A stretch of DNA of 64,000 nt, from NCBI RefSeq assembly GCF_009931435.1, contig NZ_CP043414.1, one strand, 5' to 3'. The position numbers and the translations under genes were made by a program. Below the pieces are notes generated by a model. It made no database searches. It had not been told where the DNA came from and worked only from the letters and a program-made list of their open reading frames with translations. Positions 1,330 through 64,000 of this stretch are shown piece after piece (position 1 is the first letter of the stretch; the number at the start of each line of letters is the position of its first letter). The stretch is from Escherichia coli. GTDB taxonomy: Bacteria > Pseudomonadota > Gammaproteobacteria > Enterobacterales > Enterobacteriaceae.

Positions 1330-5010
<3,681 letters not shown>

Positions 5011-26382: not shown

Positions 26383-26459
26383 TGGCGCGCCCTGCAGGAT
26401 TCGAACCTGCGGCCCACGACTTAGAAGGTCGTTGCTCTATCCAACTGAGCTAAGGGCGC
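26383..26459 (-). tRNA. argU: tRNA-Arg (anticodon UCU), argU; phage attachment site at its 3' end
   Basis: 77-nt reverse complement gives acceptor stem GCGCCCU/AGGGCGC, anticodon loop CUUCUAA, T-arm GGTTCGAATCC, 3' CCA. Confidence 0.95.
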
Positions 26460-39679: not shown

Positions 39680-39980
39680 TGCCGGATGCAGCGTGAACGC
39701 CTTATCCGGCCTACTAATCCGGTACCCATTGTAGGCCTGATAAGACGCGTCAAGCATCGCATCAGGCATGGTGCGCCGATTACCGGATGCGGCGTGAACG
39801 CCTTATCCGGCCTACTAATCCGGTACCCATTGTAGGCCTGATAAGACGCGTCAAGCGTCGCATCAGGCATGGTGCGCCGATTACCGGATGCGGCGTGAAC
39901 GCCTTATCCTACTACCAATCCGGTACCCATTGTAGGCCTGATAAGACGCGTCAAGCGTCGCATCAGGCATGGTGCGCCAT
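39680..39980. repeat. BIME cluster: three tandem copies of a roughly 100-bp unit made of REP palindromes
   Basis: Repeated gccggatgcggcgtgaacgccttatccggcctac and tgtaggcctgataagacgcgtcaagcgtcgcatcaggc units between purK and ybcF. Confidence 0.9.
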
Positions 39981-48070: not shown

Positions 48071-48199
48071 GTCATACCACACGCCTGATTATTTTTAGCT
48101 ATGTTGGATTTTGCCACGGTTTATACCGTGGCTTTTTTTGTAGTCAATTCAGGTAAAAAAAAGATGCGATATAAATCGCATCCGCTTTAAAGGTAAGAG

Positions 48200-59992: not shown

Positions 59993-61102
<1,110 letters not shown>

Positions 61103-61162
61103 TGGGCGATATTCTGAAACGGCGATTGTCGTGAGAACAGAATGGTTGCATCAGAATACAGA

Positions 61163-61254
61163 TATAAAAAAACCGACATGACAGTCGGTTTTTTTATTTT
61201 TTCCGCCCAAGACTTGGTGGTTCCGGGCAGAAATGAAACAGTCCTCATCTAGCA
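61163..61254 (-). ncRNA. Candidate antitoxin small RNA (type I TA), about 90 nt
   Basis: Minus-strand promoter TTGAAT-17bp-TATAAT (plus-strand 61283-61288 and 61260-61265); predicted 5' end is complementary to the 16-nt toxin leader motif; ends at the bidirectional terminator. Confidence 0.5.
61166..61200. terminator. Bidirectional intrinsic terminator (mnmH terminator; also positioned to terminate the candidate minus-strand sRNA)
   Basis: aaccgac / gtcggtt stem flanked by an A-run upstream and a T-run downstream. Confidence 0.7.
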
Positions 61255-61513
61255 AGTGAATTATAAGTCAGGATGCCTACATATTCAAACAGCTATGTTG
61301 GCGATACAATCCCGACGCTAGTAGTGATACTGCCTCAAGGGATTACCGCAGTGCGGAAAAGTACTTTTAAGTCCTGGTCAGGATACAGGTGGTGCTGATT
61401 CTGGTGCTCTAATTTGGAGAGAGGCAGTCCTCATCTAGCACATGAAGAAAATCATAGTTACAGGCAACGTAAGGGTAAGCTGTGATTGTCTTTCTCCCTT
61501 AAGGGAGCAACGG

Positions 61514-61597
61514 ATGAAAACTTTTCTCGATAAAGTTCTCATCGTTCTTAAGGCGCTAATCGCGCTGCTGGAACTGATCCGTCAGTTTATTGAATAA
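61514..61597 (+). CDS. Candidate type I toxin: 27-aa amphipathic/hydrophobic peptide MKTFLDKVLIVLKALIALLELIRQFIE
   Basis: ATG with AAGGGAG SD 7 nt upstream; intrinsic terminator follows (61614-61643); resembles DinQ-type toxins. Confidence 0.55.
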   Translation: MKTFLDKVLIVLKALIALLELIRQFIE

Positions 61598-61700
61598 CTG
61601 AGGAAACGTAGCTAAGGCCGAAGGTTTACCACCTTCGGCCTTTAAAAAAACCGACATGACAGTTGGTTTCAGATTTATTGCCAAAATGCACACTGTTCAT

Positions 61701-61786
61701 GCCGGATGCGGCGTGAACGCCTTATCCGGCCTACGGTTAAGTGCAGTTTTGTAGGCCTGATAAGACGCGCCAGCGTCGCATCAGGC
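61701..61786. repeat. REP element pair between the small-peptide module and ybbP
   Basis: gccggatgcggcgtgaacgccttatccggcctac ... gtaggcctgataagacgcgccagcgtcgcatcaggc. Confidence 0.85.
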
Positions 61787-61802
61787 AATCTAACGCCTGT
61801 CA

Positions 61803-64000
61803 TCACCCCGCAAACTGCCTGAACAGCGCCTTACCCTTAACCAGTCGCGCGCCCAGCCAGCCGCCGAAAAGTGACAGCAGCAGCGCACCGCTACACGGCA
61901 ACACAATCCACAATCGCCAGTCTGGCTCCCACGGGAAATCAAACACTTTCGCCTGCAGTACCGCCAGCGCCGTTTCCGCACCAATTGCGGCCACCAGGCC
62001 GGATACAAACCCGAGCATGGCGAACTCACACCATAATGTCGTGCGCAGCAGCTTTTTCCCCGCACCGAGTGTGCGCCACACCACCAGCTCCTGATGACGC
62101 TGACGCATTCCCACCTGCACCTGTGCCAGCAACAGCAACATACCGCAGGCGGTGACCAGCACCACCATCACTTCCAGCGCCCGACTTACCTGCTCCAGCA
62201 CCTGACCGACCTGTTTTAAAATCGCGCCAATGTCTAACAGGCTAATGGTCGGGAACTGGCGGTTGAGTTGCGTCAACATGCCGTTGCCATTCTCCCAGCG
62301 GAAACTGGTAAGCCAGCTCTGCGGTTGCCCGTCTAATGCCCCTTCCGGGAAAATAAAATAGAAATTAGGCCGCAGACTTTCCCAGTCCACTTTGCGCAGG
62401 CTGGTCACTTTAGCGCGGAACTCCTGGGTATCGCCCATAAAAGTCACGGTATCGCCGAGGGCAACGTTTAAGCGTTTCGCCAGCCCCTCTTCCATCGATA
62501 CTTCATCGGCTTTTGGCGGCCAGTTACCGGCGACAATTGGATTATGATCGGGCCGCGTATTTTGCCAGGTGAGATTGAGTTCGCGATTGAGCGCCTCATC
62601 TTCATTGCCTTCTGTCGGCTTATCGTTAATCGCCGTCAACCGCGCCCGCACTACCGGATAAAACGATTCCGGGACTATTTGATGTTCCGCGAGGAACGCT
62701 TTTAGCGGCGTAACCTGTTCTGTGGCGATGTTGATTAAAAAGTAGTTCGGGCTTTCTGGCGGTAGCTGCTGTTGCCAGCGGTCGAGCAGATCGCCACGCA
62801 ACACCAGCAACAGTGCCAGCAGCATAAAGGAGAGCGAAAATGCCGAAAGCTGGCTTAACGTTGACCACGGCTGACGTAACAGGCGGCTAACCGCCAGGCG
62901 CAGAGGTAGCGATTTCAGCGTCATGCGGCGAAGTACATTCAGCAGCATCCAGCCCAGGACACCGCACAGCAAAGCCAGTACTACCGCGCCCGCCAGCACC
63001 GCCCAGAGCAGCATACTGCCGCCCATCAGTCCGGCGAGCAGTAGCACAACCACCACACTGACAATCGGCAGATAAAACTTCAGCGGCCAGACGTTTGCAA
63101 CCACATCATTACGTAACACGCGTAAAGGCTGCGTTGCCAACAACAGGCGGTATGGTCGCAGCCCCACCAGCAGCGAGATGACCGTCATGGTGCCAAGCGC
63201 CCACAGCCATGGCCAGAGGCTGGCAGGCGGTAGTGCGGCAGGCAGAACGGGCTTGAGCAGCACCATCAACACGTTTTCGAACAACAGGCCTATCGCCCCG
63301 CCGGTAACGGCTGAAAGCGCCAGCACCATCAGCCACTGACCGACGATTAGCTTACGCAGTTGCGCTCGCCCAGCCCCCAGCGTTTTGAGGATCGCCACCA
63401 GATCGTAGCGACTACGACAGTAATGATTCATCGCCACCGCCACCGCCGCCACCGCCAGCAGCAAGGTCAGAAGCGCCGAAAGCAGCAGAAACTGTTGCGA
63501 GCGTTCCATCGATCGCCCCAGCGCGCCTTCGTCCTGTTCCAGACCGTACCAGCGTTGTTCGGGTTTAAGCTGAGGTAACAACCATTTCTCATAGCCGTCG
63601 AGCTGGTTCTCGTTGCCGCCGAATTTATAACGCCAGGTGACCCGACTCCCCGGCTGCACGGCTCCGGTTTTATCGACATCCGCCAGATTCATCATCAGAC
63701 GCGGGGCCATCTGGAAGGGGTTAAAACCGGAATCCGGTTCCTGAATCACTTCTCCGGCAATCCGCAAGGTGGTATCGCCCACGTCAATGGTGTCGCCCGT
63801 TTTCAGGTTAAGCAGTGCCATCAAGCGTGGGGCCAGCAATACGCTGCCCGCCTGCGGTTTCAGGCCTGGAGGATTGGTTTGCAGATCGCCATACATCGGG
63901 TAGATATCATCCACCGCTTTGACGTTCGCCAGCTGCGGTGTGTCGCCCGCAAAAGTCATCGTGGCGAAAGTCAGCTGCTTGCCGACTTTCAGGCCGCGCT
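61803..64000 (-). CDS. ybbP: ABC transporter permease YbbP (FtsX-like), 3' portion; N-terminus beyond window end
   Basis: 718-aa ORF fragment running to the window edge; multi-TMD. Confidence 0.85.
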   Translation of the reverse strand, partial: RGLKVGKQLTFATMTFAGDTPQLANVKAVDDIYPMYGDLQTNPPGLKPQAGSVLLAPRLMALLNLKTGDTIDVGDTTLRIAGEVIQEPDSGFNPFQMAPRLMMNLADVDKTGAVQPGSRVTWRYKFGGNENQLDGYEKWLLPQLKPEQRWYGLEQDEGALGRSMERSQQFLLLSALLTLLLAVAAVAVAMNHYCRSRYDLVAILKTLGAGRAQLRKLIVGQWLMVLALSAVTGGAIGLLFENVLMVLLKPVLPAALPPASLWPWLWALGTMTVISLLVGLRPYRLLLATQPLRVLRNDVVANVWPLKFYLPIVSVVVVLLLAGLMGGSMLLWAVLAGAVVLALLCGVLGWMLLNVLRRMTLKSLPLRLAVSRLLRQPWSTLSQLSAFSLSFMLLALLLVLRGDLLDRWQQQLPPESPNYFLINIATEQVTPLKAFLAEHQIVPESFYPVVRARLTAINDKPTEGNEDEALNRELNLTWQNTRPDHNPIVAGNWPPKADEVSMEEGLAKRLNVALGDTVTFMGDTQEFRAKVTSLRKVDWESLRPNFYFIFPEGALDGQPQSWLTSFRWENGNGMLTQLNRQFPTISLLDIGAILKQVGQVLEQVSRALEVMVVLVTACGMLLLLAQVQVGMRQRHQELVVWRTLGAGKKLLRTTLWCEFAMLGFVSGLVAAIGAETALAVLQAKVFDFPWEPDWRLWIVLPCSGALLLSLFGGWLGARLVKGKALFRQFAG

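Follow-up and report, generated by a model that had tools for sequence, protein, structure and literature searches.

A probable second DinQ/AgrB-type toxin-antitoxin locus in the mnmH-ybbP spacer of Escherichia coli

DinQ and the antitoxin RNA AgrB have been characterized in Escherichia coli K-12, where DinQ toxicity and depolarization were demonstrated (Weel-Sneve 2013, PMC3567139). A later paper (Kristiansen 2016, PMC5066626) defined the family of dinQ-like (dql) genes, located both on plasmids and on chromosomes in the Enterobacteriaceae and represented there by 14 Dql peptides, a DqlA set among them; in some strains these genes accompany dinQ, and they have sigma-70 promoters, terminators, Shine-Dalgarno (SD) sequences, and four leader elements. 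For K-12 dinQ, the same paper sets out a four-element model of the leader with mutually exclusive structures, 1:2 plus 3:4 versus 2:3. The DqlB/agrB addiction module of pOXA-48 has been validated experimentally, compensatory base-pair mutants included (PMC12365149). A common layout is found in zorO/orzO, tisB/istR-1, and shoB/ohsC, where a small hydrophobic toxin is preceded by a long structured 5' untranslated region (UTR) and where, as predicted for the locus described here, a divergent small RNA (sRNA) base-pairs within the UTR at a distance from the ribosome-binding site. In a 64-kb stretch of E. coli DNA (hereafter, the window, at its full length), the segment 61164-61669 is judged, with a probability of about 0.85, to be a complete DinQ/AgrB type I toxin-antitoxin paralogue lying in the spacer between mnmH and ybbP. 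An initial annotation of this DNA had proposed a trans-encoded type I module resembling dinQ/agrB, a view that profile matches, locus alignment, and predicted pairing all support; the locus proved to be known and annotated, with the function that had been proposed and not a different one. The general description of dql genes in PMC5066626 suits the locus. The family is thus already known, and this copy, itself uncharacterized, has already been picked up by annotation pipelines; the locus-specific details (missing LexA box, private pairing sequence, and repeat-mediated loss) are incremental.

The window contains allS, mnmH (60008-61102, plus strand), a 700-bp spacer, and ybbP (61803-63959, minus strand). 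The spacer is a fixed chromosomal one, mobility genes are absent from its surroundings, and the module itself was found to contain neither a transposase nor an integrase nor terminal inverted repeats. The K-12 sequence bears out the earlier statement that an rhsD element occupies this junction: the rhsD island lies at the ybbP-selU/mnmH junction, and divergence from the window begins straight after the ybbP stop. O157 has 61103-61149 after mnmH in common with the window and, beyond that, an Rhs island. In a pairwise alignment, 61135-61645 is collinear with, and ~67% identical in DNA to, the agrA-dinQ half of the arsR-gor region of K-12; because the chromosomal site is a different one, the mnmH-ybbP locus is a paralogue, not an orthologue, of the dinQ at arsR-gor. 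A four-way alignment of the mnmH-ybbP locus, K-12 agrA-dinQ, and two Salmonella mobile-element loci (L007 and L008, whose AgrB matches score 62.7 and 73.3 bits) revealed the same order throughout: sRNA terminator, sRNA, both promoters, leader, ORF, and terminator. K-12 dinQ at arsR-gor is accompanied by two sRNA genes, whereas the mnmH-ybbP locus has one.

The toxin ORF (61514-61597, plus strand) runs from an ATG to a TAA stop and encodes the 27-residue peptide MKTFLDKVLIVLKALIALLELIRQFIE, with a GRAVY of 1.23. Its SD, GGGAG, lies at 61503-61507 with the ATG 6 nt downstream, in keeping with the ORF and SD recognized at the outset. The resemblance to DinQ noted at that stage was upheld by the NCBIfam profile NF041472 (toxin_DinQ), on which the peptide scores 40.9 bits (cut-off 30), and by BLASTP 15 of 19 core residues are identical to K-12 DinQ. 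Family membership of the toxin gene is therefore directly established. As at K-12 dinQ/agrA/agrB, the peptide has 27 residues and the core D-K-x-[IL]-I-V-L-x-A-L-I-A-L-L-E-L-I-R; its termini differ from those of K-12 DinQ (MKTFLD.../...RQFIE versus MID.../...RFLLQLLN), and it starts with ATG where K-12 dinQ uses GTG. The RefSeq CDS for the ORF is WP_349808740.1, named 'damage-inducible type I toxin DinQ'. Homologues were sought with an in-frame 51-aa extension of the ORF, a search device and not a proposed product, which is without an SD and whose N-terminal part varies in length among homologues; the homologues bear Pfam PF28061. On the DqlB profile (NCBIfam NF041473), the peptide reaches 24.5 bits, under the cut-off of 35. 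A distant DNA search matched the leader and ORF, at ~70% identity, to copies labelled dinQ or dqlB in 1,669 records of the plasmid database PLSDB; three of these records are E. coli sequences of megabase size and probably chromosomes. A tblastn search of plasmids with the 27-aa peptide gave no match, probably because the query is short and of low complexity. The closest peptides (...KALIALLELIRQFID) belong to Salmonella loci adjoining conjugation or integrase genes, and peptides of this type are seen in Serratia and Photorhabdus too. A pattern scan of genome contigs with GCGCTNCTGGARCTGATYCG gave about ten relevant loci among the matches listed, which were mostly chance matches in GC-rich genomes.

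The putative toxin promoter (61282-61317, plus strand) combines a -10 TACAAT (61305-61310) with a weak -35 TATTCA (61282-61287). It matches the consensus at 8 of 12 positions and falls under the threshold of the promoter scan. In the four-way alignment, TACAAT lines up with the K-12 TATGAT and with the TATAAT of both Salmonella loci, followed in each case by 6 nt and G-YTAG; we infer from this that the mRNA starts at G61317, 6 nt past the -10. An earlier pairwise alignment with K-12 had set the LexA box and -10 opposite 61317-61331, a placement that was discarded when the four-way alignment gave TACAAT at 61305-61310 as the -10 equivalent. From the predicted start, a 5' UTR of ~197 nt (61317-61513) would carry four switch elements: element 1 (61317-61336), element 2 (61416-61440, the predicted sRNA target), element 3 (61485-61498), and element 4, the SD itself at 61503-61507. 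Downstream of the ORF, an inverted repeat forms a hairpin at 61614-61642 (12-bp GC-rich stem, 5-nt loop) followed by TTTAAAAAAA. The claim that the ORF has its own terminator was thus borne out as to the hairpin but not by the terminator scan, which made no call there because the T-run is short, with only TTT after the stem. Toxin 3' hairpins of the K-12 and Salmonella homologues are likewise trailed by short T-runs, and K-12, L007, and L008 each have a stem of other sequence at the equivalent position of the alignment.

The antitoxin gene (61166-61253, minus strand) would yield an sRNA of ~85-88 nt whose 3' end lies in a terminator U-run. Rfam RF02891 (AgrB) matches the minus strand at 61164-61252 with 53.6 bits (gathering score 40), full-length over model positions 1-84, and this is the only AgrB match above threshold in the window; membership of this second gene in its family is directly established as well. 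The sRNA aligns with both K-12 agrA and agrB and has a predicted fold of three hairpins (-31.4 kcal/mol). Among antitoxin families other than AgrB, none reached the Rfam threshold. A match to OrzO-P (25.1 bits, gathering score 60) lies on the plus strand and covers the terminator only, and it was rejected as grounds for zorO/orzO membership; the likeness to zorO/orzO, tisB/istR-1, and shoB/ohsC is one of layout, with no sequence or profile membership in them. The minus-strand TTGAAT-17-TATAAT promoter described by the initial annotation is the sole site called by the promoter scan in 61000-61900: its -35 (61288..61283) and -10 (61265..61260) match the consensus at 10 of 12 positions, and the -35 stands back to back with that of the toxin promoter (61282-61288). 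Promoters at the equivalent position are TTGCAA-17-TAGCAT for K-12 agrA and TTGAAC-17-TATACT for L008. The predicted start is G61253, 7 nt past TATAAT and directly ahead of YTAGAT. This G is kept in K-12, L007, and L008, and it agrees with the start near 61253 that had been anticipated. A perfect 14-bp hairpin between an A-run and a T-run (61164-61197) is called by the terminator scan on both strands, matching the bidirectional terminator foreseen, and is the predicted terminator of both the sRNA (minus strand) and mnmH (plus strand). Its stem, TAAAAAAACCGAC...GTCGGTTTTTT, is shared with K-12 agrA, agrB, and Salmonella L008 and occurs in variant form in L007. The locus thus resembles K-12 dinQ/agrB in having a divergent AgrB-family sRNA with an identical terminator stem.

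Complementarity between the two genes is evident in the DNA. The initial annotation said that the 16-nt motif CAGTCCTCATCTAGCA recurs at the sRNA 5' end; the copies at 61239-61254 and 61425-61440 are indeed identical, and the match lengthens to 22 nt if two mismatches are allowed. The sRNA 5' end is predicted to form 19-20 contiguous base pairs with mRNA 61421-61440, comprising 15-16 Watson-Crick pairs, then two G-U, then two Watson-Crick, and the pairing extends to 61416 with one mismatch or gaps. The paired stretch of the leader includes GGAGAGAGG, the counterpart of K-12 'element 2'; here, as in K-12 dinQ/agrB, the element-2 segment is complementary to the 5' end of the sRNA, and a short hairpin is predicted to hold the SD. 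The uninterrupted Watson-Crick run is 15-16 nt compared with 23 for agrB/dinQ (31/32 overall), and the remainder needs G-U pairs. Duplex calculations for sRNA and toxin leader fit the proposed antisense relation, giving -47.7 kcal/mol and 20 contiguous bp for the cognate pair; calculated at full length, the duplex reached -78 kcal/mol, compared with -48 +/- 4 kcal/mol for shuffled sRNA 5' ends. Across the four loci, cognate sRNAs and targets form 20-24 contiguous bp (20 at mnmH-ybbP, 24 for agrB/dinQ) and non-cognate combinations 7-15, and the variable 5' part of the sRNA co-varies with its target (for example, GAGGACUG at mnmH-ybbP and AAGAACUC in agrB). The pairing sequence is accordingly locus-specific and unlike that of K-12, with little cross-pairing predicted. 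Foreign sRNAs reach -32 to -41 kcal/mol, and AgrB is predicted to pair poorly with the mnmH-ybbP leader (7 bp). In the other direction, the mnmH-ybbP sRNA forms 12 contiguous bp, two of them G-U, with K-12 dinQ (-36.2 kcal/mol), which by these models is probably too little. K-12 AgrA, with 9 contiguous bp predicted against dinQ, is experimentally inactive on dinQ despite partial complementarity, according to PMC5066626.

Folding of the leader in silico produced the same alternatives as described for K-12, namely 1:2 plus 3:4 (closed) versus 2:3 (hairpin open). In the minimum free energy (MFE) fold of the full-length RNA, 61420-61438 is taken up by element 1 (61317-61336), and a hairpin, CCC-UUAA-GGG, encloses the SD; in folds of RNAs truncated at the 5' end, 61416-61429 binds 61485-61498 and this hairpin is opened. 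MFE folds of ~300-nt RNAs are uncertain, and in several of the truncated folds the SD is paired with 61407-61410 and is not free. The SD hairpin pairing is retained with differing sequences (CTCCC/GGGAG versus CTCCAT/ATGGAG) in a comparison of four sequences only. By analogy with the experiments on K-12 dinQ/agrB and pOXA-48 dqlB/agrB, the locus would be transcribed, the mRNA processed at its 5' end, the peptide toxic, and its toxicity relieved by the sRNA. A toxin mRNA of ~330 nt would be made from near G61317 by the sigma-70 promoter with its TACAAT -10. While it is full-length, its 5' end (61317-61336) would occupy 61420-61438, keeping the GGGAG SD locked in the hairpin and the message untranslated. 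Removal of the 5' end would allow 61416-61429 to bind 61485-61498, opening the SD hairpin, and the 27-aa hydrophobic peptide would then be made and act at the inner membrane. The strong divergent TTGAAT-17-TATAAT promoter would supply the AgrB-type sRNA (~88 nt), whose first 19-20 nt would bind 61421-61440, occupy element 2, and let the SD hairpin close again; by analogy with K-12, the sRNA-leader duplex may be a substrate for RNase III.

No LexA operator was recognized in this copy. The LexA core CTG-N10-CAG does not occur in 61100-61700, and the best LexA-like 20-mer (61275-61294) has 9/20 mismatches, one of them in the core, compared with 5/20 and none in the core for the K-12 operator. K-12 dinQ thus differs from the mnmH-ybbP module in having a LexA operator, and the module differs further in carrying a partial terminator copy downstream. 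Because the operator is missing, the RefSeq label 'damage-inducible' is probably wrong for this copy.

The module was found in ~1,330 of 5,426 complete E. coli genomes, always chromosomal and in a single copy each. As the canonical arsR-gor dinQ locus is present in 5,422 of the 5,426, carriers have both dinQ-type loci. Over 61426-61650, 1323/1325 carriers are at least 99% identical. Five alleles were distinguished: the intact form, three partial deletions, and one precise excision. A 108-bp deletion (61426-61533), between imperfect repeats AGT(C/T)CTCATC, removes the target, SD, and start codon; a 70-bp deletion (61577-61646) removes the 3' end of the ORF and the terminator; and a 186-bp deletion, from the sRNA 5' region to the target repeat, removes both promoters. 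The precise loss of 478 bp, which leaves a single 27-nt repeat, the right-hand one of the pair described below, was seen in two isolates from baboons, and the flanking sequences of both agree with module-bearing strains. All four deletion alleles abolish the toxin or its expression, and no allele lacking the sRNA alone was seen among those of the carriers. The full-length sRNA gene and promoter are kept by 1319/1326 carriers and the toxin part by 1134/1325; deletions affect the toxin part in 14.4% of carriers (191/1325) and the sRNA part in 0.5%, these being counts of genomes, not events, as carriers of the 108-bp allele may all descend from one deletion. With the toxin part gone in ~14% of carriers, the module is dispensable, and the preferential loss of the toxin is as expected of an active toxin restrained by its sRNA.

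The repeats that flank the module bear on how it arrived and how it is lost. They had been described as 26-bp direct repeats with one mismatch; the repeats are real, but they are 27 nt long (61165-61191 and 61643-61669, one mismatch, 478 bp apart). Their supposed origin as duplicates of the mnmH terminator did not hold, since the left copy belongs to the sRNA as its terminator, is conserved across the family, and also serves mnmH. The right copy, peculiar to this chromosomal site, repeats part of that terminator, with a C-to-T change at 61664 and no T-run after it. The hairpin pattern of this terminator repeat has no further occurrence in the 64 kb, and it was matched in 0/100 shuffles. In K-12, L007, and L008, the sequence beyond the toxin terminator has no counterpart of the right copy, which contains the mnmH-ybbP locus's own loop sequence; both observations mark it as a partial duplicate made locally and not as the product of target-site duplication. 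The tandem agrA and agrB of K-12 show that such duplications do happen at these loci. We conjecture that the right copy arose in this way, the 27-nt repeat most likely being the remnant of a local tandem duplication, and the repeat most likely now permits precise deletion of the module. A mobile element inserting into a pre-existing mnmH terminator could also have left two repeats as a target-site duplication; they bracket the module exactly, 478 bp apart, and two genomes have a module-free site with one repeat. This is nevertheless very unlikely. The stem of the left copy is conserved in K-12 agrA/agrB and in Salmonella at unrelated sites, so a pre-existing target would have had to match the conserved sRNA terminator by coincidence. 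The module is also without transposase, integrase, or terminal inverted repeats, other loci of the family lack the downstream copy, and the single-repeat site has the flanking haplotype of module-bearing strains, which suits later loss. At 27 nt, the repeats far exceed known target duplications in length, which likewise counts against an insertion.

The deletion alleles might also be read as the decay of an inactive relic, recognizable by homology, no longer expressed or toxic, and drifting toward loss. The partial absence of the toxin region from 191/1325 carriers, the absence of the whole module from two genomes, and a toxin promoter that is weak by consensus would all fit such a history. 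We consider it very improbable: ~85% of carriers have the full-length toxin region, 1323/1325 are at least 99% identical over 61426-61650, and the SD, start codon, SD hairpin, sRNA promoter (10/12), and sRNA-target complementarity are all intact, while the asymmetry of loss, with the toxin part affected in 14.4% of carriers and the sRNA part in 0.5%, is unexpected for a neutral relic. The retention of the sRNA gene in toxin-less alleles raises the further question of whether the sRNA acts mainly in trans, for example on canonical dinQ, with the adjacent complementarity a leftover of duplication. Its 5' end does form the 12 contiguous bp with K-12 dinQ noted above, two of them G-U. This idea is extremely doubtful, given the energies of the cognate 20-bp duplex (-47.7 kcal/mol) and the 12-bp duplex with dinQ (-36.2 kcal/mol), and given that K-12 AgrA, whose complementarity to dinQ is comparably partial, gave no repression according to PMC5066626; moreover, an antitoxin that outlasts its toxin is expected in any toxin-antitoxin system. 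The reading of 61164-61669 as a DinQ/AgrB paralogue is preferred.

The significance of the locus is slight beyond annotation and housekeeping. The antitoxin sRNA, although detected by Rfam, is missing from the RefSeq records examined, and the product name 'damage-inducible' that they carry is doubtful for the mnmH-ybbP copy. Roughly one in four complete E. coli genomes, those of the laboratory strains HS and ATCC 8739 among them, has two DinQ-type toxins, and studies of dinQ knockouts or persistence in non-K-12 backgrounds must reckon with the second copy. The allele series is a small natural data set on the loss of a chromosomal type I system. A more tentative proposal, possible but held at well under even odds, is that a LexA-independent second DinQ/AgrB module works beside the SOS-controlled dinQ through its own pairing, and that its DNA repeats provide built-in routes of safe loss. 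The repeat shared by sRNA and target would give the 186-bp deletion of both promoters and the terminator repeat the precise 478-bp excision, and each repeat deletion would end expression of the toxin no later than that of the antitoxin. If true, this would explain the repeated toxin-first loss across E. coli, and the 'addictive' hold of trans-encoded type I systems on chromosomes would be weaker than is usually assumed.

Variants of the 27-aa DinQ-family peptide (ORF 61514-61597, plus strand) are known in E. coli and Shigella (homologous proteins P0012, P0019, P0020, P0023, and P0025). Among them are a form in which loss of the stop codon yields a 33-aa product ending in ...QFIEQLRKRS, one with an altered C-terminus (...RQLLNN), and one in which the residues VL are duplicated in frame. 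In E. coli GF43, a 70-bp deletion joins the dinQ-like frame to downstream sequence (3866-4159 of the GF43 locus, L006), and part of this fused frame (3938-4159) is annotated in RefSeq as a "hypothetical protein"; that annotation is an artefact of the deletion.

The toxin-antitoxin module was also found at >99% identity in three PLSDB "plasmid" records (CP061270.1, NZ_CP141089.1, and NZ_CP134663.1). Because these records are 1.2-4.9 Mb each, they are probably chromosomes or chromosome pieces filed as plasmids. One small E. coli contig (H67) carries an exact match to 33 nt of agrA/agrB terminator sequence, corresponding to the K-12 agrA terminator (2083-2115 of the K-12 dinQ/agrA/agrB locus, L004). 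When the K-12 dinQ locus was used to query 5426 complete E. coli genomes, most contained a second "place" (median 2 per genome) and 127 places were located on plasmids; these may be additional dinQ-like loci or matches to the terminator alone.

Between the right 27-nt repeat of the module and ybbP, the window contains REP/BIME-type palindromic units (61695-61790), which gave sub-threshold Rfam matches to naRNA4, two of them on the minus strand (61695-61731 and 61754-61807) and one on the plus strand (61700-61787). The arrangement of these units is strain-variable: the window lacks a block of ~19 nt that is present in strains R32_14_1F, eco-241, and GF43, and its second unit is unlike that of the same three strains. 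Elsewhere in the window, above-threshold Rfam matches, all on the minus strand, identified two naRNA4/REP units in tandem (39734-39913), the sRNA STnc480 (48077-48143; 85.5 bits), and one tRNA gene (26386-26459). The LexA operator core CTG-N10-CAG occurs 22 times in the whole window, versus 12.5 ± 3 in shuffled sequences, and no shuffle reached 22. None of the 22 sites lies inside the module, and the excess possibly reflects codon or repeat composition.

The 5' end of the toxin mRNA (GCUAGUAGUGAUACUG) is similar to that of the AgrB-family sRNA (GCUAGAUGAGGACUG). Outside its 5' end, the body of the sRNA is loosely complementary to the toxin leader (61166-61254 versus 61338-61441), as exemplified by CCACCAA and GGUGGUG, and the same loose complementarity is seen in K-12 dinQ/agrA/agrB. 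The sRNA gene thus appears to be a degenerate leader copy that is transcribed from the opposite strand.
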